NCBI GenBank assembly: GCA_029262795.1
Contig: JAJCYT010000026.1
Span: 50,273-114,272 of the forward strand
Source: Candidatus Fraserbacteria bacterium
GTDB lineage: Bacteria; Bipolaricaulota; Bipolaricaulia; RBG-16-55-9; JAJCYT01
Direction: 5' to 3'
DNA length: 64,000 nt
This document shows positions 7,391 to 55,812 of the stretch, piece after piece (within the stretch, counting starts at the first letter, position 1; each line of letters starts with the position of its first letter). The translations under genes and the position numbers were made by a program. The notes under the pieces are model-generated. The model worked only from the letters and a program-made list of their open reading frames with translations. It was not told the DNA's origin and ran no database searches.

Positions 7391-8230
7391 TTACTCTTTC
7401 TTACCAGGCAGAATAATAATTTTACCATCTTCAAGTTTATATGTACCCGGAGATAAAATAATGGTGTCACCAGGTTTAGGAATAATGCCTGAACCAGAAC
7501 TGTTATCAGGTTTGATTTTGTTTGGTGGGATATAAAATTCTTCAATAGATCTGGGTGGCACCTTGATGCCTTTTGGTAATTGAATTTCTATCTTAGGAAA
7601 CTTTTCGCTAAATTCATCAATCCCACCTTTGGGCAACATTATCGCACCGCCATCACAACATTTTGGATTGGCTTCAATGTGGCGTACGAACCTGTATCCG
7701 TGCACAATCGCTAGCCGGAAAGAGGCCACCAAATCACCTTTAGGAAACGTTTCCCCGCCCAACTTAACCTCTTTGGCTGCTCTGGCTTGAATTTCAAAAG
7801 TCCATAAATAAAGCTGAACGGAGATGGTTTTCTGAAGACAAGGTTGTACGCTTTTCCAGTTTTTGGGAATGCTTTTTAGGTCAATCTTCTTAACTCGATC
7901 TTCCTTAAACATTGATTGAACGTCTTCTAGCACCTTGGCTAGAAGCTTATCGTCGGCAAGCCTTGCTTCATTTGATTTACGCACCCCTTCCAACATCTGG
8001 CTGCGCTCGCGACCTTGTAAAAATTTTGGATCAAACTGATCATCCAGTAAATCATCTTCTAATGGGAATTTTCTATTTGCGCCTCCTGGCTCAGGGTGAC
8101 AATCGTATAAAAAAATATCGTGTCGTCCTTTTTCATATTCAAATAAGATGAGCTTGGAGGTGAACACAAGCGAACCACGTTTAAGCATGATGTTGACTCC
8201 CTTGATCAGTTTTAGCTTATTGTAAAACAA
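7391..8230 (-). CDS. Hypothetical protein (orphan, AT-rich cargo ORF)
   Basis: The 279-aa ORF is about 37% GC in a roughly 50% GC context. I recognise no domain. It sits between the trkH 3' end and a degenerate duplicate of that end. Confidence 0.5.
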   Translation of the reverse strand: MFYNKLKLIKGVNIMLKRGSLVFTSKLILFEYEKGRHDIFLYDCHPEPGGANRKFPLEDDLLDDQFDPKFLQGRERSQMLEGVRKSNEARLADDKLLAKVLEDVQSMFKEDRVKKIDLKSIPKNWKSVQPCLQKTISVQLYLWTFEIQARAAKEVKLGGETFPKGDLVASFRLAIVHGYRFVRHIEANPKCCDGGAIMLPKGGIDEFSEKFPKIEIQLPKGIKVPPRSIEEFYIPPNKIKPDNSSGSGIIPKPGDTIILSPGTYKLEDGKIIILPGKKE

Positions 8231-8244
8231 ATGGTGTTTTTTTG

Positions 8245-8340
8245 TCGAATGTAGCGAATTGTATTGAATGTTTTTCTGATATGGGCAGGTCGTCTGGCAT
8301 TGTTCCCCGTGCTGCTGACTCGCGGTTATTGGCGTCGATA
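8245..8340 (+). pseudogene. Degenerate duplicate of the trkH 3' end (it encodes WAGRLALFPVLLTRGYWRR* compared with the authentic WAGRLELFPVLVLLTRGYWRR*)
   Basis: It shows about 80% nt identity to 7300-7386 with a 3-bp indel. It has no upstream ORF body. Confidence 0.75.
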
Positions 8341-8341
8341 G

Positions 8342-10303: not shown

Positions 10304-10396
10304 GGGCGCATTGTAATGAAAAAACGGTATGTTTGTGAATCAAAACCAACATCACTGAAAAAATCATCACCAGGCAAAAATCATCTAAATTAGCCA

Positions 10397-10464
10397 AATG
10401 TAGCCCCCTTCAGATTTTGGAAGGGTCCCCCTTCTAGACAAAGGGATCTGGGGGATTCAAGCCT
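10397..10464. repeat. REP/MITE-like repeat copy (reverse orientation, with a nested extra hairpin)
   Basis: GTAGCCCCCTTCAGATTTTGGAAGGG...AAAGGGATCTGGGGGATTCAAGCC. Confidence 0.6.
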
Positions 10465-10499
10465 TTAAATTTTCAATAATTTTGGTTTATGATTGTTGA

Positions 10500-10548
10500 A
10501 ATAAAAAGAAGCAGGGCAAGCGGACTCGCCCTGCTTCGTGTCTTTTTC
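10500..10548. terminator. Bidirectional rho-independent terminator
   Basis: GAAGCAGGGC-N10-GCCCTGCTTC is a perfect 10-bp stem flanked by an A-run and a T-run. It lies downstream of the minus-strand gene ending at 10568. Confidence 0.7.
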
Positions 10549-10567
10549 GGTTGTGGCTACTTTTAAA

Positions 10568-11512
10568 TTAGAGGGTGCCTAAGCCGGAATTTGGAGCCAG
10601 GTCCACCAGATCATCACCACTGAAATCGGTGTATTGTGAAAAACACAGCCACTGAACATCGCCAGGAGAGCCAAGCAACTCCAGGTTGAGGCGCATGGTC
10701 AGAAAGTTGCCATCGACTTCACTGTTGATGCCCAAGATGGTGTCGTTGGGGCTGGCAGTATTAACCAGCGTGGCAAATGGATTGCCTGGAATCCAGTTGC
10801 TGAGTGCAAAGAATTCAAACCCACTAGGGTTGAATGGCGCAGCAAAGCTGGCATCTCCATCGGTATCCAGATAGCAGCCAATCTGACGTGGTTCATCCAA
10901 CACGATTTCTGGCAAAATGCCCAGCATGTTGAAAGTAAACACCAGGTCGGTTTCAGAACGCGTGGCGCGAAGGTCTACAATATCAATGCCATTGACGTCC
11001 TCCGACACTGCGTCGCCTGAGGCTCGATCAAACAAATCGTTGACACTGTCCTGAACATCGAAAGTGCTTTCAAAATCGACCACGGTCAGGTCAAAGCGAA
11101 CAGATTTGTTGGCCGTTCGTGGAGCGTCACATTCACTGGCCAGACCACTGGCCACAAAGGTCATTGGATATACGCCTGCTTCCGAAGCTTCGAGCACTTT
11201 GATCTGGAAATTAAAATCCAGTTTCTGCCCCTGATTGATGACCCAGGAGTTGCCTCCTTGACGGTCAAACACCAAATTTGCATTCAACACATTGGCCGAA
11301 ATACGCCAACTGCCCATTACAGCTTCAGCGCTAAAACCAATGTCAATCGTTTCACCTGGCAACAGCACGGCATCGACAGGGTCCAGATCTAGTCCGCCAC
11401 GTGCCAATACCAAGCCGCATCTGGCACCGGTTTGTGCCACAGAATCAGAAACCAGCCCGATCAGGGCCAGGGATAAAATCATCATGCCAAAAATAGTTTG
11501 CCATCTTTTCAT
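10568..11512 (-). CDS. Secreted hypothetical protein
   Basis: The start is placed at MKRWQTIFGMMILSLALIGL, a signal peptide. I recognise no domain. Confidence 0.55.
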   Translation of the reverse strand: MKRWQTIFGMMILSLALIGLVSDSVAQTGARCGLVLARGGLDLDPVDAVLLPGETIDIGFSAEAVMGSWRISANVLNANLVFDRQGGNSWVINQGQKLDFNFQIKVLEASEAGVYPMTFVASGLASECDAPRTANKSVRFDLTVVDFESTFDVQDSVNDLFDRASGDAVSEDVNGIDIVDLRATRSETDLVFTFNMLGILPEIVLDEPRQIGCYLDTDGDASFAAPFNPSGFEFFALSNWIPGNPFATLVNTASPNDTILGINSEVDGNFLTMRLNLELLGSPGDVQWLCFSQYTDFSGDDLVDLAPNSGLGTL

Positions 11513-31000: not shown

Positions 31001-33001
31001 CTATTTGTCCTCTACCACTTCTGCTTCACTATTGGAAGAAGTGGCTGCTTCAGTTTTTTGGTTGACCTCTTGAAGCAGCTTGAGTAAATCATCGGGTGTT
31101 TCGATACCGAATTCTTTCATCTTGGCTTCGATGGTACTTTCTGGCACTTTTACGCCGAACATTTTCTCGGCCAGTCCAGATAAGAAACCACCCACGCCTG
31201 TGACGGTGCCTGAGACGAGCTCTTCAATTTCAGTCGGTGTGCTTTGCACCAAGCCTTGCAGGAAGTGACCGTTTTCCTGACCGCGCGTGAAACCATTCAT
31301 CATGGCAGTTAATGTGGTTGGATCGCCCCAAATCCGCATGTCAGCCTGACCCAATGCCTGACCGAACGCTTCGGCCTGAGCCACGCGCACGGCTTGATCG
31401 GCCTCGATGTTCTTGAGCGCAATCTGCAATTCTTTGGAAATTTCCTGGTATTCTGCCTGGTTTTTCAAACTTTCACGTTCAACTTCAACGCGTTCACGTT
31501 CCACATTGACGGGCACCATTTCGACGGCTTGGTTTCCTTCCGCTTCCATCGTTTTGGCAGTTTGTTCAGCTTGAGCCAAATCAATTCTGGCTTTGGCTTG
31601 TTTTTCTGCCGCAGTTTGATCCGCTTCAGATTCTTTGATCGTGGCATAAGCTTCGATGTCAGCGCGCATGTTTTCTTCAATGCGCTGCTGTTCAGCCTGC
31701 GAATAGCGTTGAATCACAGCCACTTCTTTTTGGCGCTCAGCCTCTGCAGTCTTTTCAACGGTCAGCACAGCCTGATGCTCACGTTCCTGATCCTGCTCAG
31801 CCACAAAACGTTGAGCGTCCGCCTCAGCGCGTTGTTGTTCAGCACGGGTCACGGCAATCTGCTGCTGACGCTTGGCCACTTCCACTGCCTGAACACGGGC
31901 CACTTCTGCTGTTTCCATTGCCTGTTGCTTTTGCTGATCGGCCACATCCAACGCCTGTTGTTTGGTCACGCGAGCCACTTCGACCTCGCGCTCCTTAAGC
32001 ACCTCGGCAATGCCAGCCATCTGCTGTTGCTGCGCTTCCGTGGTGGCTGCTTCCTGATCGGCAATGGCTTTGGCGTTTCTGATTTGCTTTTCTCTGTCAG
32101 CCGCAGCTTGGGCACGTTCAATCTCGCGTTCATACACATATTGATCTCGCTGCACTTCTTGCTGCGACACTTCTTTGTCGGCTGATGCCTGGATACGTGT
32201 TTTTTCCACGCGCGCAGCCTGCGTGATTTCGGCCACGGCTTTCAACCCTTGCGCATCAAATACATTGTTTTCATCCAATTCGCTCGTCGGCGTTTGGTCA
32301 AGCTCGGAGATGGTCACACTTTCCAGCGTCAAACCATTGTGCTTGAGATCGCTTTGAACAATGTGTTGTACCCCGCTGCCGAAGTCATCACGTTCAGCAT
32401 TGAGTGTTTGCAGGTTGCGTGTGGCGGCCACGTTACGCAACGCGTTGACCGCCTTGGCGAACATGAACGTTTTTAGTTCTTCAGTTTGTTGAAGCTTGTC
32501 GCCAATCGAGGTGGCTGCATTCAGCACATCTTCACGCTTTTTGGCGACCTTGATGTAAAACTCCGCTGTGATGTCCGCACGAAGTTTATCCCCAGTAATT
32601 AAAGCATCGCGTCCTTTTCGGTCAATGTCAATACGCACCGTGCCCAATGGCACATGGATAATGCTGTGCAGAAAAGGAATCACCACCGCGCCACCATCAA
32701 TCACAATTTTGGCTTTGCTGGAGTCATCCCGGCTGGAACCCATCCCACCCGTTCGTACAAATGCCATGTTCGCTGGCGCTTTGATATACAGATTGGTTAC
32801 CACAGCCACAATCACACCCAGGAGCAGCAAGGCGGCACCAAACACCATGACTAAAATTTGAGCCGGTGTACTTAGAATATTAGGATTTATAATTGAAACA
32901 GTGATAGTTCCAATAACCATGATCAGCCCGATGAAGATGAATAAAATACCAACACCAGCCCCGCTTCCACTTTTCTTTTGTTTAGGGATTTGTCTATTCA
33001 A
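31001..33001 (-). CDS. Flotillin-like SPFH/band-7 protein with a long coiled coil (YqiK type)
   Basis: It has an N-terminal TM region. The SPFH domain is followed by an extended E/A/Q-rich coiled coil. The protein is 666 aa. Confidence 0.8.
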   Translation of the reverse strand: MNRQIPKQKKSGSGAGVGILFIFIGLIMVIGTITVSIINPNILSTPAQILVMVFGAALLLLGVIVAVVTNLYIKAPANMAFVRTGGMGSSRDDSSKAKIVIDGGAVVIPFLHSIIHVPLGTVRIDIDRKGRDALITGDKLRADITAEFYIKVAKKREDVLNAATSIGDKLQQTEELKTFMFAKAVNALRNVAATRNLQTLNAERDDFGSGVQHIVQSDLKHNGLTLESVTISELDQTPTSELDENNVFDAQGLKAVAEITQAARVEKTRIQASADKEVSQQEVQRDQYVYEREIERAQAAADREKQIRNAKAIADQEAATTEAQQQQMAGIAEVLKEREVEVARVTKQQALDVADQQKQQAMETAEVARVQAVEVAKRQQQIAVTRAEQQRAEADAQRFVAEQDQEREHQAVLTVEKTAEAERQKEVAVIQRYSQAEQQRIEENMRADIEAYATIKESEADQTAAEKQAKARIDLAQAEQTAKTMEAEGNQAVEMVPVNVERERVEVERESLKNQAEYQEISKELQIALKNIEADQAVRVAQAEAFGQALGQADMRIWGDPTTLTAMMNGFTRGQENGHFLQGLVQSTPTEIEELVSGTVTGVGGFLSGLAEKMFGVKVPESTIEAKMKEFGIETPDDLLKLLQEVNQKTEAATSSNSEAEVVEDK

Positions 33002-33027
33002 TCCTTCCTCCTTCTAGCAATTTGTAA

Positions 33028-33762
33028 TTAGTGTTTTAGACGTTCTTTTTGTTCTTGGGCGAGCGTGTCTCGACGTACCCAAAACAGTTCGGTTTGTCGG
33101 TCAAATTTCACCAGCACCACCTGAGTGCCAGCTTCAATGTCTGTTTCCGAACGACAGGGGACTTCTTGAAAATTTCCGTACTGGTCGTAGAGCATGACAG
33201 AGCCTGATTTGTCCGTGATGGAATATCGTGCTTCGCCAATTCTGCCGACCAGATCGCTGTCTTTGGTGGCCAGGGTTTGCATGGTGGGCATGATTTTTGC
33301 GATCTGTTTAGACAAAAAACCAGTGCCAAAAAACATCACGAAACCAGCACCCGCCATCGAAAGTAAGGCCATCAAATCAGGTGCGCTATCGAAACCTGGG
33401 ATCAGCCCGTTCAGGAACCAGCCTGTCAGTCCCCACAGCAAGCCGGAAGTGATCATGACAATGGAAATCGGAATCCGCCCCACGCCCAAAAAGCCCAGCG
33501 TTCGTATGAAAAGCCCTGGTTCATAGTCGAGGTCATGACCCACGGTTTCTGTGTCCGTGTCCACATCGACATCAAACTCTATGTCGTTGGGCAGTACTTC
33601 CATATCGACATCCACATCAGCATCTAGGTCGATGTCCTGATCCACATCCATATCCTGATCGGATTGAAACAAGCCCGTCGCTTGCAGCAACGACAGCATG
33701 GCTGCAAACAGCAACGGCAATTCGAAGATGAGGTAATACCACTTCAAAAATTCCATCTTCAC
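33028..33762 (-). CDS. NfeD-like membrane protein (YqiJ type), partner of the flotillin
   Basis: It has TM helices, an Asp-rich acidic loop and a C-terminal OB-fold-like segment. It lies immediately upstream of the flotillin gene. Confidence 0.6.
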   Translation of the reverse strand: MKMEFLKWYYLIFELPLLFAAMLSLLQATGLFQSDQDMDVDQDIDLDADVDVDMEVLPNDIEFDVDVDTDTETVGHDLDYEPGLFIRTLGFLGVGRIPISIVMITSGLLWGLTGWFLNGLIPGFDSAPDLMALLSMAGAGFVMFFGTGFLSKQIAKIMPTMQTLATKDSDLVGRIGEARYSITDKSGSVMLYDQYGNFQEVPCRSETDIEAGTQVVLVKFDRQTELFWVRRDTLAQEQKERLKH

Positions 33763-33771
33763 TCACTTTCC

Positions 33772-34288
33772 CTAGCGTTCGCTCTCGTTGGCTTCATCGG
33801 ATTCAAGCTGAGCTTCCAATGCCGCCAATGTGTATTCTATTTCGTCGAGTTCTAATAATTGTTGAATTTTTGCTGCCATCGCCTCGTAAGCATCATCTGT
33901 GGCTGAATTGGTTTCAGTCTGAGTCGCTTCAGCCTTTTGATCTAAAAAGGCTTGATATGCTGTATCCGCTTCTTTTTTCAACGCTCGATAACGATCTTTG
34001 AGTTCAGGAATTTTGTTGGATGCCTGCACTTGAAGCCGCACACACTGCTCGGCTTGAGTGCGATCCCCTTCTTTTAAAAACTTTTCTGCAAGTTGTTTGT
34101 TGGCCTCAATTTCTTCAATTGTGTTTGTAATTTCATCCCGAACATCCTCAGCCAGCGCAATTTGATACGAAGCCTCTTTTCGCTTTTCCTCAACTTTTTG
34201 ATTGATTTCAAAGCTCATATCATGGACTTCAACATCTTCAATAGCATCGCCATCTAAAAAAGTCTTAATATTTTTCCATAGACGGGAA
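33772..34288 (-). CDS. pspA: PspA/IM30 family protein
   Basis: The start is MMFSRLWKNIKTFLDG, with AGGAG 8 nt upstream. The protein is all alpha-helical and charged, as in PspA. Confidence 0.65.
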
Positions 34289-34715
34289 AACATCATATGT
34301 TCGCTCCTTCGCTGCTGATCATAGCCCAGAGCATTTTTCCCGACAAATCGAAAATTTACTCTATCTTCGAGCTGCCATAGCTGGCTTTTGTTATAGAAAT
34401 TCTGTTGTCCATCATGCCTGCGAAAACAAGAATTAAAACCAATTCCCACCTTTGCAGGGACGATGAAGTGTTGATTCACACAACTGCTTGTGTGTGATAA
34501 TTGAAAGCTTTTCCACCCTTTCCTCTATTTACGCCGATGCGGCCAAAGTGTTGCATCAAGTTACTTCCATTCATACTTTTCCATCCTTTCAAATGAACGA
34601 CAAAACTCTTGCGTGATTCAAAACAAAGAGGTACACTTCTCATTTCTGCGGGTTAGGCTGTTTCGACACAGGGCGTGTTGGGGTTTCTTTTTTTCCAAAT
34701 TTAAAAAGTGAGTAT

Positions 34716-35516
34716 TTGATGCTGTATCTTGCGCTATTTCGCAAGGGCTTTCAGCGGATGATGGCCTACCGTTCAGCCACGCTGGCGGGGATTGCGACCA
34801 ATTTCTTTTTTGGGTTGCTGCGTACTTATCTGTTCATCGCGGTGTTTGATGCCAGTGGACAGGTAAGCATTGGTGGTTTTTCACTTCGGGACGCCATTAC
34901 ATTTACTGCACTCACCCAGGCATTTGGCTCCTCTCTTGGTATCATCAACTGGTGGTGGGAAGTGGGCAAAACCATCGAGTCTGGCGAAATTATTACAGAC
35001 TTAACCAAACCGTTTCATTATTTCAGTTTTTGGTTATCTCGTGACTTGGGCCGCATGGTGTTTCAAGTGATCTTTCGTGGATTGCCCATCATGATTGTGT
35101 ATCCATTTTTCTTTGAACTCACCTGGCCAACGTCGATGGCTCAATGGCTTTTGTTTTCGCTAAGTCTGTCGATGGCCATGATCATCAGTTTTTGCTGGCA
35201 TTTCTGGATGAATTGCTTGTCCTTTTGGTTTGTGAATGCCAAAGGCTTTGGACGCTTTGCCTGGTTGGCCGCCGCGTTCTTTTCAGGGTTTCTGATCCCA
35301 CTTTCATTTTTTCCAGACTGGTTAAAAGCTATAGCTATGTGGACGCCTTTGCCTGCCATTATCAACACACCCATTGAAATTTACCTCGGTGTCGCTCAAG
35401 GCGCCGCATTGTGGGAGGCGCTGGGCCTTCAGCTGTTTTGGGTGATCGCCTTTACAATCATTTGTGAACTCACATTCCGCGCAGGCCGTAAGCGCCTGGT
35501 GATTCAAGGAGGCTGA
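34716..35516 (+). CDS. ABC-2 type transporter permease (uncharacterised COG4587/COG3694-type system)
   Basis: The 266-aa polytopic protein is the first of two permeases preceding an ABC ATPase. Confidence 0.65.
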   Translation: MMLYLALFRKGFQRMMAYRSATLAGIATNFFFGLLRTYLFIAVFDASGQVSIGGFSLRDAITFTALTQAFGSSLGIINWWWEVGKTIESGEIITDLTKPFHYFSFWLSRDLGRMVFQVIFRGLPIMIVYPFFFELTWPTSMAQWLLFSLSLSMAMIISFCWHFWMNCLSFWFVNAKGFGRFAWLAAAFFSGFLIPLSFFPDWLKAIAMWTPLPAIINTPIEIYLGVAQGAALWEALGLQLFWVIAFTIICELTFRAGRKRLVIQGG

Positions 35517-35518
35517 TC

Positions 35519-36322
35519 ATGATTGAAGGATTTCGCTTATACGCCCGTTTGATGAGCGCACAAATTCGCTCCCAGATGCAGTACAAAATGTCATTCATCA
35601 TGGAGTTTGCCTCCACCTTCATGGGCATGATTTTGGAATTCGCCAGTGTCGTGGTGCTTTTTATCCACATGCCTGCCCTGGATGGATGGACCCTGGCCGA
35701 AGTTGCTTTCCTCTACGGCTCCGCAGAATTTGCGATGGCCTTGTCTCAGGTGATTACATCTGGCTTTGATGTCTTCCCTGAAACAGTTCGGTTGGGAAAA
35801 TTCGACAGCATTTTGATTCGACCTCGAAATGCAATGTTTCAGGTGTTTGCCTCTGAACTTGCAATTCGGCGCTTTGGCCGTGCAGCACAAGGTTTGTTTG
35901 TTCTGGGCATTGCTATCTGGTGGATGGATGTGGACTGGGGCGTGGCTGAATGGTCCATGCTTGCGGTCATGATTCTCGGTGGTGTGGTGTTTTTTGCAGG
36001 TTTGTTCATCATCGGCGCGACTTTTTCATTTTGGACTGTGGAAGGATTGGAGGCCATGAACATCCTCACCTATGGCGGCTCAACCATGGTGGCCTATCCA
36101 ATGAGTATTTATGCCGAGTGGATGCGAAATGTGTTTATCTTCATCATCCCCTTGGCATTTGTCAATTATTATCCATCTTTATTTTTGCTCAACAAAGTGG
36201 ACCCGTTTGGGCTGCCTGGGTTCATGCCATTTTTATCGCTTCCGTTGTGCAGTCTGGTTTTATTGGCTTCATTGGTGTTTTGGCATTTTGGCATAAAACG
36301 GTATCAAAGTACAGGGCACTGA
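35519..36322 (+). CDS. ABC-2 type transporter permease, second subunit
   Basis: The protein is 267 aa and polytopic. Its start is 3 nt after the previous stop. Confidence 0.65.
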   Translation: MIEGFRLYARLMSAQIRSQMQYKMSFIMEFASTFMGMILEFASVVVLFIHMPALDGWTLAEVAFLYGSAEFAMALSQVITSGFDVFPETVRLGKFDSILIRPRNAMFQVFASELAIRRFGRAAQGLFVLGIAIWWMDVDWGVAEWSMLAVMILGGVVFFAGLFIIGATFSFWTVEGLEAMNILTYGGSTMVAYPMSIYAEWMRNVFIFIIPLAFVNYYPSLFLLNKVDPFGLPGFMPFLSLPLCSLVLLASLVFWHFGIKRYQSTGH

Positions 36323-36336
36323 GTGAGGGAGGTTGA

Positions 36337-37335
36337 ATGAGTTTTATCAAAGTAGATCAGCTTTGTAAGACGTTTAAGGTAGCCACCCACAAACGGGGAT
36401 TTGTGGGGGCCATTCGTAATTTGGCTTCCAGGCAGCATAGCCTAGTGAAAGCCGTCCAAGACATTTCCTTCCAAATTAAACGAGGCGAGTTGGTGGGCTA
36501 TCTCGGTCCAAACGGTGCAGGGAAGTCCACAACCATCAAGATGCTGACTGGCATTCTTGTCCCCAGCAGTGGTCAAATTACGGTCGGAAATATTATCCCC
36601 TGGGAACAGCGAAACCAACACACGCGCCGCATTGGCGTCGTATTCGGACAGCGCACAAACTTATGGTGGGATTTACCTGTGATTGAAAGTTTCGATCTGC
36701 TCAAATACATCTACAATGTTCCCGAGGATCGCTTTAAGCAGAATCTAAAAAAGTTCGAGGATTTGCTGGAACTCGGTGAATTTTCCAACACCCCCGTCCG
36801 CAGCCTGAGCCTCGGTCAACGGATGCGTGCCGACCTTGCTGCCGCCCTCCTGCACGATCCCGAAGTTGTGTTTCTCGATGAACCCACCATCGGCCTGGAT
36901 GTCGTCGCCAAAGATCGAATCCGAACCTTTATTAAAGAAATTAACCAAAATGCGGGCGTCACATTCATCCTCACCACCCACGATTTAGGCGATGTGCAAA
37001 AGCTCTGCCGCCGCGTGATGATGATCGACCACGGTAAACTATTATTCGACGGCCCCTTGCAAGAACTCCAAGACCGCTTCGGCCAGGAGCGCGAACTCGA
37101 AGTCGATTTCGCCGACGATTACGAAGATGTCTCCATCCCAGGGGCAAAGATCATTCAACAACAAGGTCGACAAACCACCTACCGCTTTTCAAGAGAACAA
37201 ATGAGTGCGTCTAAACTCATCCAATCTCTCGCAGAAAAATTCCAAATCATCGACCTCACCGTCCGCGAACCGGATGTAGAAAACACCATTCGCCATATTT
37301 ACGAAAAGAAATTGTTGAGTCACCAAAATGACTAA
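36337..37335 (+). CDS. ABC transporter ATP-binding protein
   Basis: The Walker A motif is GPNGAGKST. The ABC signature is LSLGQRMR. The Walker B motif is VVFLDEPT. The H-loop is TTHD. Confidence 0.85.
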   Translation: MSFIKVDQLCKTFKVATHKRGFVGAIRNLASRQHSLVKAVQDISFQIKRGELVGYLGPNGAGKSTTIKMLTGILVPSSGQITVGNIIPWEQRNQHTRRIGVVFGQRTNLWWDLPVIESFDLLKYIYNVPEDRFKQNLKKFEDLLELGEFSNTPVRSLSLGQRMRADLAAALLHDPEVVFLDEPTIGLDVVAKDRIRTFIKEINQNAGVTFILTTHDLGDVQKLCRRVMMIDHGKLLFDGPLQELQDRFGQERELEVDFADDYEDVSIPGAKIIQQQGRQTTYRFSREQMSASKLIQSLAEKFQIIDLTVREPDVENTIRHIYEKKLLSHQND

Positions 37336-46366: not shown

Positions 46367-46927
46367 ATGAGCGTTGATCCATTGTTGACCGATGCAGAAG
46401 AACACATGCAAAAAAGCTTACACGTGTTGGAAGAAGATCTTTCAAAAATCAGTACGGGGCGCGCAAACCCTGCGATTATCGAAGATGTGAGCGTGGATTA
46501 TTATGGGGCGGCCACCCCGTTGAAGCACATGGCCAACATCTCTGCGCCTGAAGCGGATACGTTGTTGATTCGCCCATTTGATGCACAGCAAAAACAGGTG
46601 ATTGAAAAGGCGATTCTGGAATCCAATCTTGGGTTTAATCCATCCGTTGAAGATGATGTGGTGCGTATCAAAGTGCCCATGTTAACGGCTGAGCGACGTG
46701 AGCAGTTGATCAAGGTGGTGCATGAACGCGGTGAGGAATCGAAAGTGGCCATTCGCAACATCCGTCGTCATACCAAAGATGATTTGGAAAAGATGAAAAA
46801 CGATGGAGAATTGCCCGAAGATGATTTGCATCGAGAGCTGAGCGCCTTGGATGATTTGACCCACAATTACTGTGACAAGGTGGATGAACACGTTGCCAAT
46901 AAAGACAAGCAGCTAAAAACGGTTTGA
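46367..46927 (+). CDS. frr: Ribosome recycling factor
   Basis: The 186-aa protein MSVDPLLTDAEEHMQKSLHVLEEDLSKISTGRANPAIIEDV matches Frr throughout. Confidence 0.9.
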   Translation: MSVDPLLTDAEEHMQKSLHVLEEDLSKISTGRANPAIIEDVSVDYYGAATPLKHMANISAPEADTLLIRPFDAQQKQVIEKAILESNLGFNPSVEDDVVRIKVPMLTAERREQLIKVVHERGEESKVAIRNIRRHTKDDLEKMKNDGELPEDDLHRELSALDDLTHNYCDKVDEHVANKDKQLKTV

Positions 46928-47121
46928 AACTGAATTTATCGCTTGGTACAATGCCGATGGCAGGCAGGGGCCGATGCTTGAGGGTTGCAAAAGTTCGCTT
47001 CTGCTAACAAAAAGTTTAAATTGAAAAACAGGGTCTGCAATGCTGTGAGTAGGGTTTCAGGGATGCAGGGTCACTTTTTGATTGCCAATCTAAATTTTGG
47101 AGAGGGAAAGCTACAGCTTTC

Positions 47122-47529
47122 GTGCAAACAATGAGTGAGCGTACACATGATGGCTTTGCTGAGCTGGTGGCCTTGAAGCTCAGTGTTCCCACATTGTTGT
47201 TCATTTCCCTGGTGTTGTTGAATTGGGAAATCTCTTGGTCTTTGGGATTCATTCTTGGGGGCGCGGGAGGTTTGTTGGGTTCGTACTTTACCTGGATGCA
47301 CTGGCAGAAACTCTCTGAAAAGTCCGAAAACAAATCTGAAGGTCAATTTCATCAATCCGCTTGGGGCGGCGCCCTGGCCAGCGTGGTCTTGATGGCAGTG
47401 GTATTGTTTGTCAGTGCCTCAACCCCATGGCTGGATCTGTTTGCTGCTGCGGCAGGGTTATTTGTGACAAAAATATTTATTGGGTTGACACCTTTCCTAC
47501 GGAGGACGCATGGATCACATCGGTCTTGA
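47122..47529 (+). CDS. ATP synthase protein I-like small membrane protein
   Basis: It is hydrophobic with 3 to 4 TM helices. Its position is immediately upstream of atpB. Confidence 0.45.
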   Translation: MQTMSERTHDGFAELVALKLSVPTLLFISLVLLNWEISWSLGFILGGAGGLLGSYFTWMHWQKLSEKSENKSEGQFHQSAWGGALASVVLMAVVLFVSASTPWLDLFAAAAGLFVTKIFIGLTPFLRRTHGSHRS

Positions 47530-48244
47530 GATGGTATGGGGTTACTTTACAGACCCCAATGACCCTAGCACTTTTATTCCACTATTGGACGCTCGAATGC
47601 TGGTGATGTCGTGGATTTCGATGCTGATTATTATTTTCGGCTCACTGGTGCTGCGACGCGGGATGAAGTTCAATCGCGATTTTGAAGACGTGCCTTCCAA
47701 ATCTCAGGCATTTTTGGAAATCCTCTTGAAGGGGTTGCATACGCAACTGGCCGGTGGGTTTCAGTCCAACAAGGTGGGCGAACAATTGTTCCCTATGTTG
47801 GCCACTTTGGGGGTTTACATTCTGTTCCTCAACTGGCTGGCACTGATTCCGGGCATGGCCTCTCCAACGGAAACGGTGAACATTCCCATCAGTTTGGGCT
47901 TGTTTATTTTTGTGCTGTCGCACTATTACCGAATTAAGCTCAATGGCCCAATTGGTTATTTAAAGAGCTATATGGAAGCGCCTGGCGTGATGGGCGTCAT
48001 CATGATTCCACTCAGCATTGTGGGTGAAATTGCCCGACCGATTTCCCACTCGTTCCGTCTTTACGGAAACTTGATGGGTGGGGCCATTCTTTTATTGGTG
48101 ATTGCCAATCTGGTGCCGCTTTGGGTGGTGCCGTTGCACACGTTCTTGAACTTCTTCTACATCTTATTCGTGGGTGGCATTCAGGCAATGGTGTTCACGT
48201 TGCTGTCCGTGGCCTATATCGGCATGGCGGAGGGGGATCACTAA
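47510..48244 (+). CDS. atpB: F0 ATP synthase subunit a
   Basis: FRLYGNLMGG is the essential-Arg motif region. The protein is 244 aa with 5 to 6 TM helices. Confidence 0.85.
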   Translation: MDHIGLEMVWGYFTDPNDPSTFIPLLDARMLVMSWISMLIIIFGSLVLRRGMKFNRDFEDVPSKSQAFLEILLKGLHTQLAGGFQSNKVGEQLFPMLATLGVYILFLNWLALIPGMASPTETVNIPISLGLFIFVLSHYYRIKLNGPIGYLKSYMEAPGVMGVIMIPLSIVGEIARPISHSFRLYGNLMGGAILLLVIANLVPLWVVPLHTFLNFFYILFVGGIQAMVFTLLSVAYIGMAEGDH

Positions 48245-48245
48245 A

Positions 48246-49808
48246 ATGGAATGGAATATTTCTGGACAAGATTTCGTCACGTTCTCGCGCTTTGTGGGCG
48301 CAGCGTTGGCGATGGGGTTGGCGGCCATCGGCTCCGCAATGGGGATTGGTTTGGCTGCCACAGGCGCACTCAAAAGCATGGTGCGTCAGCCCGAACGGCA
48401 GGGTGAATTTGTCCGCACCATGTTCATCAGTCAGGCCGTGGCGGAATCGACCGCCATTTACGGTTTGGTTGTTGCCATGTTACTTCTGTTTACCACCGGT
48501 GGTGGACATACAGACGGCATTCACGGCTCAGACTGGGTGAACGGTCTTCGCTTTCTGGCAGCAGGGTTGACCATGGGACTGGGCGCTATCGGTGCCGGTT
48601 ACGGCATTGGGATTGCCGGTACACACGCCATCGAAGCGATTACACAACGTCCTGAAATGAGCGGTGTGTTTATGCGCACCATGTTCTTAGGCATGGCAAT
48701 CACAGAATCGCCAGCGATTTATGCGCTTGTGATTTCAATGATTCTCATTTTCGTGATGGGCGCACCAGATGCTGTTGGTGTCTTTAGCGGCAATATTATG
48801 GACATTGCCCGTTATGTGGGTGCTGGTTTGGCCATGGGCGCAGGTGCCATTGGGGCTGCCATCGGGATTGGGACTGCGGCTGCAAAGGCCTTGGTTGCCA
48901 TTGCCCGACAGCCAGCCAAGCAAGGGCCTTTGGTCCGCACGATGTTTTTGAGTATGGCGATTACGGAATCCCCAGCGATTTACGCATTGGTGGTTTCTTC
49001 AATTTTGATTTTTGTATTCACGCCAACCGATGCTGAAGCCGCAAGAATTTTTGGCGGCATGGATTTGGTGGCCATTGGGAAATATATGGGTGGGGCCATT
49101 GCCATTGGGTTTGGCACCATCGGGGCAGGGATTGGTTTGGGGATTGCCGGTGGCGGCGCCTTGGATGGCATTTCGCGCAATCCGCGGAAAGAATCTTCCC
49201 TGGTCCGCACGATGTTTCTGAGCATGGCCATCACGGAATCGCCTGCCATTTATGCGCTGGTGATTTCGCTGATTCTACTGTTTGTGTTCGCCGTGCCAGA
49301 CACCATGAGCTGGGCGCAGGGATGGGCTGAACTGGCCAAGTTGCTCGGTGGCGGCATTGCGATTGGCTTGGGCACCATTGGTGCTGGAGCCGGTGTGGGC
49401 ATTGCCGGATTGGGTGGTTTGATAGGGATTTCACGTCGGCCGCAAAAAGAAGGCGCGATGCTGCGCACCATGTTTATTGGCATGGGCGTGACAGAATCGC
49501 CCACCATTTATGCGTTGGTGGTTTCATTGATTTTGCTGTTTGTGGCCAGTTCGGATGTCAGCACCATGAGTCAGGGACTGCATGACTTTGCCCGCTTCTT
49601 GGGCGCAGGGTTTGCCATGGGAGCTGGGGCCATCGGCCCTGGTTTGGGGATTGGGTTGGCCACCAGAGATGCACTCACCAGTATGGCCAAACAGCCTGCA
49701 CATGAAGGTGCGCTGGTTCGCACGATGTTCCTGGGCATGGCCGTGACCGAATCCACAGCGATCTACGCGTTGGTGGTTTCTTTGATTTTGTTGTTCGCAG
49801 TTGGTTAA
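48246..49808 (+). CDS. atpE: F0 ATP synthase c subunit, a natural fusion of six tandem c-subunit hairpins in one polypeptide (about 520 aa)
   Basis: It is a single uninterrupted ORF with a GGAGG RBS. There are six repeats of about 87 aa. Each has a Gly-rich helix 1, an RQPE/RNPR loop, and RTMF...(A/T)ES(T/P)AIYALV...LILLF in helix 2 with the carboxylate Glu conserved. The repeats are diverged at synonymous sites. Confidence 0.8.
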   Translation: MEWNISGQDFVTFSRFVGAALAMGLAAIGSAMGIGLAATGALKSMVRQPERQGEFVRTMFISQAVAESTAIYGLVVAMLLLFTTGGGHTDGIHGSDWVNGLRFLAAGLTMGLGAIGAGYGIGIAGTHAIEAITQRPEMSGVFMRTMFLGMAITESPAIYALVISMILIFVMGAPDAVGVFSGNIMDIARYVGAGLAMGAGAIGAAIGIGTAAAKALVAIARQPAKQGPLVRTMFLSMAITESPAIYALVVSSILIFVFTPTDAEAARIFGGMDLVAIGKYMGGAIAIGFGTIGAGIGLGIAGGGALDGISRNPRKESSLVRTMFLSMAITESPAIYALVISLILLFVFAVPDTMSWAQGWAELAKLLGGGIAIGLGTIGAGAGVGIAGLGGLIGISRRPQKEGAMLRTMFIGMGVTESPTIYALVVSLILLFVASSDVSTMSQGLHDFARFLGAGFAMGAGAIGPGLGIGLATRDALTSMAKQPAHEGALVRTMFLGMAVTESTAIYALVVSLILLFAVG

Positions 49809-49866
49809 GGATTTTTAAACTTAAAATTTTTGAAATTACGTGTTGCTCAATTGAAGGAGGACACAC

Positions 49867-50154
49867 ATGGAAGTGTTGAACTTATTCTTGCAAGCAGGAC
49901 AAGGCATTACGGGCGAAGATTTGGTTACGGCTGCCCGTTACTTAGGTGCAGGCATGGCTATGGGTTTTGGCGCTATCGGCCCTGGCATCGGTGAAGGTAT
50001 GGCTGCAGGTGCTGCGTTGCAGGGGATTGCCGCCAACCCAAAAGAACAGGGTGCTTTGGTTCGTACCATGTTCATCGGCCAGGCTGTGGCAGAATCCACC
50101 GGCATTTACGCATTGGTGATCGCCATTATCTTGTTGTTCGTGATGGGCAACTAA
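49867..50154 (+). CDS. atpE: F0 ATP synthase c subunit (conventional monomer, Na+-type-like ESTGIY motif)
   Basis: The 95-aa protein has a GGAGG RBS. Its sequence is GFGAIGPGIGEGMAAG...ANPKEQGALVRTMFIGQAVAESTGIYALVIAIILLF. Confidence 0.85.
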   Translation: MEVLNLFLQAGQGITGEDLVTAARYLGAGMAMGFGAIGPGIGEGMAAGAALQGIAANPKEQGALVRTMFIGQAVAESTGIYALVIAIILLFVMGN

Positions 50155-50185: not shown

Positions 50186-50653
50186 ATGTTTGGAATTGAA
50201 TTAAGTAATTTTGGCTTCGTATGGGAAACGATTGTTACAAACATCAACTTTGCGTTTTTTGTCAATTTGCTTCAGTTTTTCTTGCTGGTGTTTATCATGA
50301 ATCGTTTGATCTACAGACCGCTACTAAAGTTCATGGATGCCCGCGATCAACGCTTGAATGATCAAATGGCAGCTGCTGAACAACAGCGCAGCAGTGCTGA
50401 AGCACTACGCAGCCAGCGTGAAGGTGAACTTCAGGAAGCCAGCCTTCAGGCGCGTAAAACACTGGAAGTTGCCCGTAATGAAGCTGCCGATACGCGTCGC
50501 CAAATGCAAGCCGAAGCTGAAGCCGAGGGTCGTCGCTTGATTGAAGCTGCACGCTCGCAAGCTGAAAGTGAGTTGGTGTCGGTGCGTACAGAACTCGAAG
50601 GTCAAGTGGACCGCTTGGCAGGCGTTGCCGCGGCCCACGTGCTGGGAAAATAA
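50186..50653 (+). CDS. atpF: F0 ATP synthase subunit b'
   Basis: It has an N-terminal TM helix and then a long charged alpha-helix. It is the first of two b-type genes. Confidence 0.7.
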   Translation: MFGIELSNFGFVWETIVTNINFAFFVNLLQFFLLVFIMNRLIYRPLLKFMDARDQRLNDQMAAAEQQRSSAEALRSQREGELQEASLQARKTLEVARNEAADTRRQMQAEAEAEGRRLIEAARSQAESELVSVRTELEGQVDRLAGVAAAHVLGK

Positions 50654-50662
50654 GGAGGCATC

Positions 50663-51178
50663 GTGGATTTCCTAAATCAAGACGTATTGTGGGATTTCTT
50701 TTGGCGAGTGGTCAATGCGGTGATCCTCTTTGGTTTGGTTGTTTATTTTGTGCGTAAGTATGATGTCATCAACAAGGTGTTTGGTGGCTATCAGGAAAAA
50801 ATTCAGCGTGAAATTGACAATGCCAAAAATGTGGAAGAAGATGCTGCTCGCATCAAGCGTGAGATCGATCAGATGTCCGAACAGGCTGAAGTGCGCTCCC
50901 AAGAAATTGTAGAAAAAGCCAAAGAGCAGGCCCAACGCGAAAAAGAAGCTTTGATTGAAGACGCTAAATCCAGCGCTGAACGTATTTTGACTCAAGCTCG
51001 CCAGACGGCTGACTATGAACAGGAGCGACAATCGAAATTGTTACAAAATGAAATTGTCGAACGCACACTTGAAAAAGCACGTGAAGAAGTGGCTGCAAAA
51101 ATCACCAAAAAGGAAAACGACCGCTTGGTGAATGAATTTTTGGATAGTCTCAATGAAGAGAGCGTGAAGTTATCATGA
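50663..51178 (+). CDS. atpF: F0 ATP synthase subunit b
   Basis: It has an N-terminal TM helix (VVNAVILFGLVVYFV) and then a charged helix. Confidence 0.75.
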   Translation: MDFLNQDVLWDFFWRVVNAVILFGLVVYFVRKYDVINKVFGGYQEKIQREIDNAKNVEEDAARIKREIDQMSEQAEVRSQEIVEKAKEQAQREKEALIEDAKSSAERILTQARQTADYEQERQSKLLQNEIVERTLEKAREEVAAKITKKENDRLVNEFLDSLNEESVKLS

Positions 51179-51717
51179 AACAAAAACACGTGGCTCAAAA
51201 TTATGCAGCAGGGTTGTTCCATGCCAGTCAGGCCAACAACAGCACTGATGCTGTGGAAGCCGATTTGGGAAAACTGGCCAGTGCAGCTGCTGAAACCAAC
51301 TTGAGTGTGTTGTTGTCCAATCCTCAGGTGGATAAAAAAGACAAACACGCCCTTGTTGATAAGATGCTTAAAAATGGACATCCATACGTGGGCAACCTTG
51401 TCCATATCCTGGTTGAACGCAATCGCGGCAGATACTTGCCCGACATTTATCAACACTTCATGAAAATTCGCGATCAAGAGTCTGACAGTCTCCATGTGAC
51501 GGTGGAAACCGCCTTTGAGCTGACCAAGACGATTCAGGACAAAATTTCCAAACGCCTCAACGAATTGACGGGCAGAGACATCCGCCTGTCCATTGTGGAA
51601 GATGTCACCATCGTTGGTGGGATTCGTTTGAAATTACAAGACAATTTAATTGATGGGTCCGTGCTGGCCCAAATGGATGGGTTGCGCCAACAGTTGTTGG
51701 GCAGCAGTGCCAATTAA
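51175..51717 (+). CDS. atpH: F1 ATP synthase subunit delta (OSCP)
   Basis: The protein is 180 aa. Its position and OSCP-like helical N-domain support the call. It overlaps atpF by 4 nt. Confidence 0.75.
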   Translation: MKQKHVAQNYAAGLFHASQANNSTDAVEADLGKLASAAAETNLSVLLSNPQVDKKDKHALVDKMLKNGHPYVGNLVHILVERNRGRYLPDIYQHFMKIRDQESDSLHVTVETAFELTKTIQDKISKRLNELTGRDIRLSIVEDVTIVGGIRLKLQDNLIDGSVLAQMDGLRQQLLGSSAN

Positions 51718-51758: not shown

Positions 51759-53282
51759 ATGGCTAAGGCAGGGATTAGCGCTGGCGAAATTAGCAATTTA
51801 ATTGAACAGCGCATCAAAGATTATGGCAAAGAATTACAGATGGAAGAACAGGGTGTTGTCGTCGAAGTTGGGGACGGCATCGCTCAGGTTTATGGTTTGC
51901 AAAACGCCATGTCTCTGGAATTGATTGAGTTTCCAAACGACGTGCAAGGCCTGGTGCTCAACCTGGAAGAAGACAGTGTGGGCGTCGCCTTGTTCGGTAA
52001 CACCGAACTGGTAAAAGAAGGCGACACCGTCAAGCGCACCGGTCGTGTGTTGGAAACCCCAGTTGGCCCTGAATTGCTGGGTCGCGTGGTGGATCCCCTA
52101 GGGAATCCAAAAGACGGCCAAGGGCCGATTAACGCCAAAGAAACCCGTTTGGTGGAAACCAAGGCTGAAGGCATCATTCAGCGTCAGCCTGTGGACACCC
52201 CACTGCAAACGGGGATCAAAGCCATTGACGCCCTCACACCCATTGGTCGTGGTCAGCGCCAGCTCATCATTGGCGACCGTCAAACGGGGAAAACCACGAT
52301 TGCGGTGGACGCCATTTTGAACCAAAAAGATACCGGCGTAAAATGTATTTATGTTGCGATAGGCCAGAAGGCTTCCACCGTTGCCAAGACCATCGAACTG
52401 TTTCGTCAGAGTGGCGCGATGGATTACACTGTTGTCGTCTCCGCCGAAGCTTCCGACCCTGCACCATTGCAGTGGTTGGCCCCTTACTCGGGTTGTGCAA
52501 TCGGTGAATATTTTATGTTCAAAGGGGAAGACGCCCTGGTGGTCTACGATGACCTTTCCAAACAGGCTGTGGCCTACCGCCAATTGGCTTTGTTGCTGCG
52601 TCGCCCTCCGGGCCGCGAAGCGTATCCTGGTGATGTGTTTTATTCTCACTCACGCTTGCTGGAACGCGCCGCCCGCCTGAATGACAATCTGGGTGGTGGC
52701 AGCTTGACCGCCCTGCCGATTATTGAAACCAAGGCCGGAGATGTATCCGCTTACATTCCAACCAACGTGATTTCGATCACCGATGGTCAGATCTTCCTGG
52801 AATCGGATCTTTTTAACTCCGGTTTTCGTCCTGCCATGAACGTGGGTGTGTCTGTATCCCGCGTGGGTGGGGCCGCGCAACAAAAGGCGATCCGTACCAT
52901 GGCTGGTCCGTTGCGTCTGGAATTGTCCCAGTACCGTGCATTGGAAGCATTTGTGGAATTTGCATCCGAATTGGACGATGCCTCTCGTGCCCAGTTGGAT
53001 CGCGGTCAGCGCATGATGGAATTGCTAAAGCAGGACCAGCACGAACTGCGCTCTGTGGCTGAACAGACCATTGCCATTTACGCAGGTGTGAACGGCTATC
53101 TGGATGGCATCGAAGCGAGCCAGGTGCGTGAGTTCGAACGTGGCTTGCTGGACACCATCCACGCACAATATGCCGACAGCATCCTTAAACCCATCATGGA
53201 CACAGGCAAGCTGGAAGATGCGGTTGTGGAGAAAATTAAAGAAGCCATCGAATCCTTTGCACAAGGATTTGGGTCGAACTAA
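51759..53282 (+). CDS. atpA: F1 ATP synthase subunit alpha
   Basis: GDRQTGKT is the Walker A motif. The protein is 507 aa. Confidence 0.92.
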
Positions 53283-53294
53283 GCGGGGCAACTT

Positions 53295-54152
53295 ATGGCA
53301 AAGGTAAAAGAAATTAAGCGCCACATTACCAGTGTGAGCAAGATCCAGAAGATCACCAAGGCCATGTACGCCATTTCGATGACGCGTGCCTTTAAGTCCA
53401 GGCAACAATTGCTCCAGGCACGTGAATACAGCGATGCTCTGGTGGGCATGATGCAAGGCGTGATCAACGATGTGGATGAAGAACACCCACTTCGAAAAGG
53501 GTCTGAAGACGGCCATTATATCTTTGCCGTCAACTCCGACCGTGGCTTGTGTGGACGATTTAAAGGCGACATCAACCGCGCTGCCGAGCAACTGCTGAAA
53601 GAAAAGAACAACCCCAGCCTGATTATCGGTGGGGACAAGGCAAACCTCCACTTTCGCAGTCGCTCTTACAAAATTGAGAGCAAATATATCAACGTATACG
53701 ACAAGCCCGAATTTGAACATGCACGCCAGATCGGTGAGGACCTGATCGCTTTGTACGAAGAAACACAGATGCCCATTCACGTGGTGTACATGAAATACAT
53801 CACAGATTTCAAACAAGAAATTGATGTGCAAACACTCCTGCCACTCACCGTACCGGAGCCTGAAAATGTTCAAAATTCTGAGCAGGCGGCCGAAACAATT
53901 TATGAACCTTCCAAAGAAGAAGTGTTTGAATCCATTGTGCCGTTGTACGTGAAGGGCCAGATTTACCGATTGTTGCTGGAAAGCAAAACCAGCGAACATG
54001 CCATTCGTCGTCAGTCCATGCGCAATGCCACGGACAACGCCGAACAATTGATTGACGACCTTACATTGGAATACAACAAGGCCCGCCAGCAGGAAATCAC
54101 CAGCCAGTTGCTTGACATCATGGGTGGTGCTGAAGCGCTTAATAATATGTAA
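53295..54152 (+). CDS. atpG: F1 ATP synthase subunit gamma
   Basis: The protein is 285 aa. MAKVKEIKRHITSVSKIQKITKAM is the gamma N-terminus. Confidence 0.88.
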   Translation: MAKVKEIKRHITSVSKIQKITKAMYAISMTRAFKSRQQLLQAREYSDALVGMMQGVINDVDEEHPLRKGSEDGHYIFAVNSDRGLCGRFKGDINRAAEQLLKEKNNPSLIIGGDKANLHFRSRSYKIESKYINVYDKPEFEHARQIGEDLIALYEETQMPIHVVYMKYITDFKQEIDVQTLLPLTVPEPENVQNSEQAAETIYEPSKEEVFESIVPLYVKGQIYRLLLESKTSEHAIRRQSMRNATDNAEQLIDDLTLEYNKARQQEITSQLLDIMGGAEALNNM

Positions 54153-54166: not shown

Positions 54167-55615
<1,449 letters not shown>

Positions 55616-55646
55616 TACCAGCTTCACTTCAATTAAACACGAAGAA

Positions 55647-55677
55647 GGGCGTACCTTTTACGGTGCGCCCTTTTTTT
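55647..55677 (+). terminator. Rho-independent terminator of the ATP synthase operon
   Basis: GGGCGTACC-ttttac-GGTGCGCCC is followed by TTTTTTT. Confidence 0.8.
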
Positions 55678-55712
55678 ATAAGAAGAATTTAAAAGTAAAG
55701 AAAAAATGGTTA

Positions 55713-55812
55713 AGGGCTCTAATCTCCCAACCCTCTTTACATAAAGAGGGCTACGATTTGGACTGCGGATGTTGATCCTAAATGACGGTGTGGTTTTCTT
55801 TTCGGGGAGAGG
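55713..55812. repeat. REP/MITE-like repeat, full-length forward copy
   Basis: TAATCTCCCAACCCTCTTTACATAAAGAGGGCTACGATTTGGACTGCGGATGTTG...TTTTCGGGGAGAGG. Confidence 0.75.

Follow-up and report, generated by a model that had tools for sequence, protein, structure and literature searches.

The c6 and c1 genes and their operon

The stretch of DNA analysed here (the window) comprises 64,000 nucleotides (nt) from Candidatus Fraserbacteria bacterium, and it carries an F-type ATP synthase operon in which a gene for six fused c-subunit hairpins (c6, 48246-49808) is followed by a gene for a single-hairpin c subunit (c1, 49867-50154). Both genes, like all features given below unless stated otherwise, lie on the forward strand. 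The c6 open reading frame (ORF) begins with the ATG at 48246, which sits 1 nt past the stop codon of atpB (TAA, 48242-48244), and ends with the stop codon at 49806-49808; read directly, it is a single uninterrupted frame of 520 amino acids (aa), as had been claimed in an earlier sequence-only reading of this DNA. That reading had also placed six consecutive c hairpins in the frame, and the check with PF00137 bears this out with six non-overlapping stretches (E 3e-91); the NCBIfam F-type c models likewise match in six stretches. The RTMF anchors of successive hairpins are separated by 87, 87, 90, 86 and 85 aa. Every loop motif reported earlier (RQPE, RPEM, RQPA, RNPR, RRPQ and KQPA) was found again, the polar R/K-x-P loops of hairpins 1 to 6 being RQPE, QRPE, RQPA, RNPR, RRPQ and KQPA. 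The single-hairpin size of F-type subunit c (about 70-90 aa, forming a homo-oligomer) is not that of c6 with its 520 aa, and it is that of the adjacent 95-aa gene. For c6, 12 transmembrane helices are predicted, and the AlphaFold2 model has 12 long helices with a mean predicted local distance difference test score (pLDDT) of 89 and a predicted template modelling score (pTM) of 0.89. The helices show short breaks at the Pro after Glu-Ser in hairpins 2-5, and the linkers are modelled less confidently than the helices (pLDDT 51-85).

The integrity of the c6 gene was judged from its repeats, from other assemblies and from substitution rates. The six repeats are 56-69% identical in DNA, they have no exact word of more than 17 nt in common, and codons differ at 40-70% of the residues that are identical between repeats. 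The earlier argument from repeat divergence against an assembly artefact thus stands, since repeats so diverged in DNA could not be created or collapsed by any assembler. An identical c6 protein is encoded in two other assemblies (SRR15505519 and SRR15505517). Three further contigs, of 177 kb and 1.0 Mb from ENA and of 3.2 Mb from JGI, encode versions 94-96% identical, each within this same operon, and the gene thus recurs in at least five independent assemblies. In comparison with two relatives, the ratio of nonsynonymous to synonymous substitution rates (dN/dS) of c6 is 0.033-0.043 at dS 0.6-1.2, which equals that of the beta subunit. Because dN/dS is this low at such a dS, the frame has long been kept open by selection, and c6 is a genuine gene under strong purifying selection.

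The hairpins of c6 are not interchangeable copies. Identity between hairpins inside one protein is 42-67%, as against 64-87% for hairpins at the same position in relatives, and each hairpin position is therefore under its own constraints. Hairpin 5 is nearest within c6 to hairpin 4 (67% aa identity) and its counterpart is absent from the five-hairpin relatives P0002 and P0004; it is the youngest unit and arose by a recent duplication of hairpin 4. The first two hairpins are joined by the linker GGGHTDGIHGSDWVN (48498-48542; pLDDT about 73), which is predicted to be periplasmic and is conserved in the clade, being also present in P0001, P0126, P0002, P0003 and P0004; the other c6 linkers are not so conserved. 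The His and Asp residues of this linker might bind something.

Between c6 and c1 there is an AT-rich spacer of 58 nt (49809-49866), in which no promoter or terminator consensus was found. The c1 gene encodes 95 aa with one PF00137 match (E 2.6e-17), and the strong ribosome-binding site ascribed to it earlier is present as AAGGAGG at 49854-49860, 6 nt before its ATG. As read from the sequence, the Shine-Dalgarno site of c6 is a GGAGG (48229-48233) inside the end of atpB, 12 nt before the c6 ATG. The ribosome-binding site of c1 is the better of the two. From the stop codon of subunit a to the start of the fusion there is 1 nt in the window and 0-9 nt in relatives. Taken together, the coupling of c6 to a with its 12-nt Shine-Dalgarno spacing, and the AAGGAGG of c1 at 6 nt, would fit a low copy number of c6 and a high copy number of c1. 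The hairpin core of c1 is nearly invariant within the clade of the window, and its dN/dS is 0.02-0.06.

The order of genes in the operon is atpI-like, a, c6, c1, b', b, delta, alpha, gamma, beta. The first gene (47122-47529; ATP-synt_I, PF03899 E 4.7e-6) is also found in this position in loci L001-L003, L008 and L088. It is followed by atpB (47510-48244; PF00119 E 1.2e-43), which encodes subunit a, the stator part with the ion half-channels, and has the motif HSFRLYGN with the conserved Arg. Downstream of c1 lie b' (50186-50653; ATP-synt_B, PF00430 E 1.9e-23), b (50663-51178; ATP-synt_B, PF00430 E 1.1e-16), delta (51175-51717; OSCP, PF00213 E 1.1e-39), alpha (51759-53282; taken from the ORF translation, with Pfam domains on the orthologue in L003 and L088), gamma (53295-54152; TIGR01146, 241.9 bits against a cut-off of 194) and, as the last gene, beta (54182-55615). 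The canonical F-type operon described earlier, with b, b', delta, alpha, gamma and beta, is therefore present; what had been overlooked is that no epsilon gene follows beta (55616-55781). A hidden Markov model (HMM) of epsilon (atpC) built from 12 family loci gave no match anywhere in the window at E<=10. Epsilon is also absent after beta in L003, L088, L089 and L090, where a gene for an HhH-GPD glycosylase is found instead, and it is present after beta in 12 loci of the wider family; it may be encoded elsewhere in the genome. Upstream of the operon there is a promoter-like site (TTGAAA, 17 nt, TG-TACAAT; 46924-46952) that matches the consensus and is a candidate only, promoter-like sites being no commoner in the region than in shuffled sequence.

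The nearest named relatives of the beta subunit (69-73% identity) are all Candidatus Acetothermia or Bipolaricaulota, and on these the host is taken to be a relative of Bipolaricaulota. Other genes of the window are housekeeping genes (frr, TrkAH, a malic enzyme-PTA fusion, MetK, MetRS, ArgG, ArgH, DprA and ProC), and because of these surroundings the operon looks like the main ATP synthase of the cell and not an accessory island. Among the 20 other window ORFs annotated with Pfam, which have housekeeping functions only, there was no Na+ pump that would hint at the coupling ion. Rfam and tRNA scans across the window gave no matches. On the minus strand at 31001-34479 there are three consecutive ORFs (666, 244 and 235 aa) with no Pfam match at E<=1e-5, adjoining an ABC-2 transporter cluster at 34716-37335.

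Ion-site residues and related operons

All hairpins were aligned to one profile, and the positions of the Na+ ligands in Ilyobacter tartaricus and Fusobacterium nucleatum (32, 65, 66, 67 and 70) were read off. A Na+ site takes residues 32 and 65 from one hairpin and residues 66, 67 and 70 from its neighbour (PMC3692424; PMC2359735; PMC11738941 supplement), and by the published motif rule a site without one of the ligands is scored as H+-type (PMC2359735; PMC11738941 supplement). The earlier claim that the helix-2 Glu is retained in all six hairpins of c6 holds: it is found at residues 67, 154, 241, 331, 417 and 502, in the position of I. tartaricus Glu65, and Ser66 and Tyr70 are likewise kept by all six. 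The core of hairpin 1 (48285-48500) has Ile32 and the helix-2 motif AVAESTAIY (Glu codon 48444-48446); that of hairpin 2 (48546-48761) has Ile32 and AITESPAIY (Glu codon 48705-48707); that of hairpin 3 (48807-49022) has Ile32, within AIGAAIGIG as in Escherichia coli c, and AITESPAIY; that of hairpin 4 (49077-49292) has Leu32 and AITESPAIY; that of hairpin 5 (49335-49550) has Val32 and GVTESPTIY; and that of hairpin 6 (49590-49805) has Ile32 and AVTESTAIY. The helix-1 Na+ ligand is therefore missing in all six hairpins, a point that the sequence-only reading had passed over, and position 67 is Pro in hairpins 2-5. The Na+-type two-carboxylate motif that it had attributed to c1 is indeed there in full (Glu32, Glu65, Ser66, Thr67 and Tyr70), so that the F. 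nucleatum type of ligand set is complete in c1 and incomplete in every hairpin of c6. By the published rule the six c6 sites are predicted to be H+-type and the c1 sites Na+-type, and a site formed between hairpin 6 and a following monomer would carry the complete Na+ ligand set.

A protein search with a cut-off of E<=1e-10 gave 573 homologues, and hairpins were counted in the best 120 of these, all of which have 4, 5 or 6 hairpins. On scanning one genome per species, 485 relatives were confirmed and 80 loci were kept, with 87 loci analysed in all; the 80 kept loci have 3-6 fused hairpins in F-type operons. The natural hexameric fusion is thus not the one-off in an F-type operon that it had been taken for; in public genomes, operons ordered as a, fused c, monomeric c and b run into the hundreds. 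Cultured carriers are Desulfatibacillum alkenivorans, Desulfosarcina variabilis, Desulfocarbo indianensis and Dethiosulfatarculus sandiegensis, and metagenome-assembled genomes (MAGs) with such fusions belong to Thermodesulfobacteriota, Omnitrophota, Phycisphaerae, Cloacimonadales, Nitrospirales and Hydrogenedentota as well as Bipolaricaulota. In 86 of the 87 loci a single-hairpin c gene stands directly after the 3-6-hairpin fusion, with the subunit-a gene directly upstream in all 86, and a b-type gene comes next after the monomer wherever the contig reaches far enough. Locus L040 (Desulfobacteraceae MAG) has two monomer c genes (about 9002-9281 and 9370-9637) after a four-hairpin fusion. It may be noted that annotation pipelines label the fusions plainly as 'ATP synthase F0 subunit C', which masks the architecture. 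When 50%-identity cluster representatives were taken, 56 clusters were found at E<=1e-30, and just one of them stands for the clade of the window. The closest fusion among species-representative genomes is a five-hairpin protein at 60% identity, from a Bipolaricaulota MAG (L008).

In most fusions Glu65 is confined to the first hairpin or to the first and the last, the others having Gln. By number of loci, the patterns are EQQE (19), EQQQ (17), EQQQQQ (10), EQQQE (9) and EQQQQ (8). This Gln-type family is spread over L004-L087 (for example L006 at 10001-11455, L019 at about 7763-8957 and L032 at about 7997-8972). Two four-hairpin fusions are free of carboxylates, namely SQQQ in L077 (7946-8966, Nitrospirales MAG) and GQQQ in L078 (2856-3855, Hydrogenedentota MAG), and in the GQDQ fusion of L060 (777-1764) the lone carboxylate is an Asp in hairpin 3; a monomer with the complete Na+ motif comes after each of these three. 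The family monomers have Glu or Gln at position 32 together with Glu65, Ser66 and Tyr70 in every complete sequence, and Thr67 in all except L034, which has Pro. On the side of the fusions, the last hairpin of every one offers Ser66, Thr67 and Tyr70. Further, most hairpins of Gln-type fusions that keep Glu65 also have Glu32 and are preceded by a hairpin that supplies the complementary Na+ ligands. Such covariation of ligands along the chain is what neighbours in a ring would require.

Glu65, Ser66 and Tyr70 are kept throughout the hairpins of the window clade, where position 32 is Ile, Leu or Val and interior hairpins have Pro67. To this clade, a rare variant, belong the window protein, those closely related to it, and P0002-P0007, which have 4 or 5 hairpins. 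All-Glu fusions in the genome scan are those of the window, L001-L003 and L008, plus one Omnitrophota locus, L034. Pro67 in interior hairpins and Ser-Thr-Tyr in the last are found in both the window clade and the Gln-type fusions. In the five-hairpin relative P0006 (437 aa) hairpin 1 has Glu32 and not Ile, so that within the clade this hairpin can change between an H+-type and a two-carboxylate Na+-type set of ligands. Another relative, P0003 (348 aa, on a 3-kb contig), has counterparts of window hairpins 1, 2, 3 and 5, ends with KVQV and has no Ser-Thr-Tyr last hairpin; it may be a truncated or chimeric gene call and not a genuine four-hairpin fusion.

Composition of the rotor ring

We consider it probable (roughly 60%) that c6 and c1 form one heteromeric rotor ring, the composition and hairpin order of which would be fixed by covalent links. 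In such a ring c6 would provide six neighbouring hairpins joined by short periplasm-facing linkers, and one or two copies of c6 would be combined with m copies of c1. Both termini of bacterial F-type c subunits are on the periplasmic side, and the c6 linkers are expected there for this reason. The shared ring is suggested by the conservation of the gene pair across phyla with both genes under strong purifying selection, by the carboxylate-free fusions (L077 and L078), which could work only alongside a monomer, and by the site ligands, which co-vary along the chain and across chain ends. It is further suggested by the translation signals, c6 being coupled to subunit a, which is present in single copy, and c1 being served by an optimal ribosome-binding site of its own, and it is supported by the closest solved structure, Acetobacterium woodii c1, which comes from the same operon order and a heteromeric ring. 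The building plan would be that of the A. woodii FoVo hybrid rotor, except that every fused hairpin keeps its ion-carrying Glu. As no site is lost, the c6 fusion would not serve to lower the ion/ATP ratio in the way proposed for A. woodii, and what would remain for the covalent links is to set the number and order of six non-identical hairpins. It is reasonable to suppose, as in the sequence-only reading, that ring stoichiometry is constrained by the fusion.

A number of points weigh against the shared ring. Since none of the six Glu is missing, a ring built from two copies of c6 and nothing else (12 sites) would in principle work. We know of no characterised precedent for a ring that mixes H+-only and Na+ sites. 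Motif-based ion specificity can fail, and Ser66, Tyr70 and Thr64 together with water could support Na+ or Li+ binding in c6. Translation signals are weak predictors of stoichiometry. The gain from fusing fully functional hairpins is not obvious, and the all-Glu state may be an ancestral stage before Glu loss. Also, the window clade and the Gln-type fusions give no positional signal for one origin, their hairpins being 30-50% identical to each other whichever positions are compared.

Four other explanations of the gene pair were weighed. If the ring were made of c6 only, with two copies (12 hairpins) or three (18), c1 would be a minor component or a leftover gene. Glu65, Ser66 and Tyr70 in all six hairpins would give such a ring a full set of sites, 12 hairpins is within the known range of F-type ring sizes, and AlphaFold2 packs the six hairpins confidently (pTM 0.89). 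Yet purifying selection acts on c1 no less strongly than on c6, its core is nearly invariant, its ribosome-binding site is the better of the two, and the monomer is kept beside the fusion in 86 of 87 loci; we regard a c6-only ring as rather unlikely. Less likely still are two alternative rotors, a c6-only H+ ring and a c1-only Na+ ring, placed on the same stator and F1 so that either gradient is usable. Such a division of labour would agree with position 32, which is Ile, Leu or Val in c6 and Glu in c1, and with the close resemblance of c1 to the subunits of the homomeric c11 Na+ rings of F. nucleatum and I. tartaricus. The two genes, however, are 58 nt apart in one operon, presumably co-transcribed, with no promoter or terminator consensus between them and therefore no switch; one subunit a would have to handle both ions; and the carboxylate-free fusions of relatives cannot make a working ring by themselves.

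That c6 is a polyprotein, cleaved after translation into six single c subunits, seems very improbable. The lower model confidence of the linkers (pLDDT 51-85) could be read in its favour, and the one conserved linker motif could in principle be a recognition site, but four of the five linkers lack this motif, c subunits are not known to have a protease site or to offer a precedent, and the position-specific divergence of the hairpins would be pointless if they were cleaved into a random pool. Besides, A. woodii c1 is uncleaved in its crystal structure (4BEM_J, one 182-residue chain). An artefact of assembly or annotation, whereby six small genes or a collapsed or expanded tandem repeat appear as one frame, was rejected because the repeats have diverged and the gene recurs in independent assemblies, and on dN/dS. 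Assembly is known to go astray at tandem repeats in general; here no exact word longer than 17 nt is common to the repeats, the same open frame is present in NCBI, JGI, ENA and Logan assemblies of different samples, and it persists across dS 0.6-1.2 with dN/dS 0.03-0.04, which leaves this explanation with a negligible chance.

Returning to a ring shared by c6 and c1, the motif-based site types raise a more specific version, in which six linked H+-type sites and several Na+-type c1 sites would turn together. Each turn would then carry H+ and Na+ in a fixed ratio and both gradients would be drawn on at once, the fusion hard-wiring the ratio and the order of sites. We hold this mixed-ion version to be doubtful. 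If it were true, the family of a, multi-hairpin c and single-hairpin c operons would show that bacteria tune F-type coupling widely by fusing hairpins and by switching sites on and off.

The cost of one ATP in ions, which is basic to cell energetics, depends on how many ion sites the c-ring has and of what kind. So far A. woodii and a few acetogens have been the basis for heteromeric F-type rings that contain a multi-hairpin subunit, and the longer c fusions were previously regarded as a trait of archaeal A-type enzymes. F-type operons with a 3-6-hairpin fusion and a monomer are common in anaerobes, including cultured sulfate reducers that can be studied directly. They present two extremes: nearly all fused sites are off in most lineages, and all are kept, with an altered ligand set, in the clade of the window. 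If the rings are mixed, these operons would be natural experiments on the tolerated runs of inactive or different sites, on ring size and order, and on the use of two ions. Should the Gln-type fusions be part of the ring, these enzymes could have an ion/ATP ratio much lower than that of every F-type enzyme characterised so far. The window protein offers the cleanest test of fusion itself, since site loss does not confound it.

Comparison with known c subunits

A contrast with A. woodii c1, in which one site is lost, had been drawn in the sequence-only reading. It is correct in that no hairpin of the window has lost its Glu, and it needs amending in that A. woodii is the closest known system. 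The A. woodii operon has the order atpI, a, multi-hairpin c, single-hairpin c, b, delta, alpha, gamma, beta, which is also found in Clostridium aceticum (PMC7911925), and its ring is heteromeric with one two-hairpin c1 and nine monomers (PMC9171764). A multi-hairpin c followed by a single-hairpin c between a and b is thus common to the window and the A. woodii FoVo type; the A. woodii operon has epsilon and that of the window does not. The monomer pair of L040 mirrors the c2/c3 pair of A. woodii. By sequence the best PDB match of both c6 and window c1 is A. woodii c1 (4BEM_J), followed by the c subunits of F. nucleatum, A. woodii (c2) and I. tartaricus. In fold, too, c6 is closest to 4BEM_J (root mean square deviation 2.2 A, two hairpins aligned), and none of the solved chains could be aligned with it beyond about two hairpins. 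In A. woodii c1 the first hairpin carries Glu and the second Gln, Na+-type monomers follow, and the same loss of Glu to Gln is seen in most relatives of the window protein. By comparison, c6 has six hairpins and not two, reads EEEEEE without loss of a site, and has no helix-1 Gln/Glu ligand. The Na+ ligand set is on the single-hairpin subunit in the window, as in the A. woodii monomers. Orthology of c6 with A. woodii c1 was rejected, as the A. woodii c1 hairpins are 72% identical to their own c2 and 46-55% identical to the hairpins and monomers of the window family. Since they are closest to their own c2, the duplication in A. woodii is independent, and the two systems resemble each other by convergent design.

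Window c1 aligns over the whole hairpin with the c subunits of F. nucleatum (3ZK1) and I. tartaricus (1YCE), the helix-2 motif GQAVAESTGIY is identical, and the five Na+ ligand positions are as in the F. nucleatum structure (PMC3692424). These two species have one c gene and a homomeric c11 ring, whereas in the window a six-hairpin gene precedes the monomer. In having a helix-1 Glu window c1 also resembles the c subunit of the N-ATPase. The window operon does not follow the N-ATPase gene order (beta, epsilon, X, X, a, c, b, alpha, gamma), and an N-ATPase was rejected on gene order and on model scores, the F1 gamma model passing and TIGR03322 and TIGR03323 staying below their cut-offs. The alternate gamma model gave 63 bits against a cut-off of 282, and c1 gave 66 bits against 131 on the alternate c model; on the latter c6 reached 304 bits, only as the sum of six stretches of about 50 bits.

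Several hairpins in one polypeptide are also found in the archaeal A-type K subunits (3 in Methanocaldococcus jannaschii, 13 in Methanopyrus kandleri), and the 13-hairpin K subunit of M. kandleri keeps every ion site (PMC2359735). The K genes adjoin V_ATPase_I and other A/V-type genes, whereas c6 lies between PF00119 and the genes for F-type b, OSCP and F1 gamma and has a separate monomer. An A/V-type identity was rejected on these neighbours (PF00119, PF00430, PF00213 and F1 gamma). The search also returned a protein of 1139 aa (P0141; locus L091, 8001-11420, JBHLMG010000009.1 of GCA_048938385.1) with 15 c/K hairpins, all with Glu, encoded directly after a V_ATPase_I gene (PF01496); it seems to be a rotor of the A/V type of which most or all is made as one polypeptide, and it exceeds the 13 hairpins of M. 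kandleri. Other long c/K fusions from the same search are P0176 (8 hairpins), P0203 (10), P0178 (12) and P0160 (13).

Engineered fusions with hairpins linked C-terminus to N-terminus, namely E. coli c2-c4 and the Bacillus PS3 c10 made for the study of c-subunit cooperation (PMC8809890), can assemble into working F-type rings, and the place of defective sites along their chain matters. They consist of identical laboratory units, while the units of c6 are natural, old and non-identical. We found no description of F-type c subunits with at least three hairpins in full-text searches of the literature, which covered the specialised hybrid-rotor papers in part; ProAD speaks of subunits that have at least two hairpin domains, and the c subunits that it illustrates are those with one or two hairpins only. 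F-type rotors that are heteromeric and contain a multi-hairpin subunit are known already, and what is new in the present operon is the number of hairpins, the carboxylate kept in every one of them, and the difference in ligand set between the fusion and the monomer.

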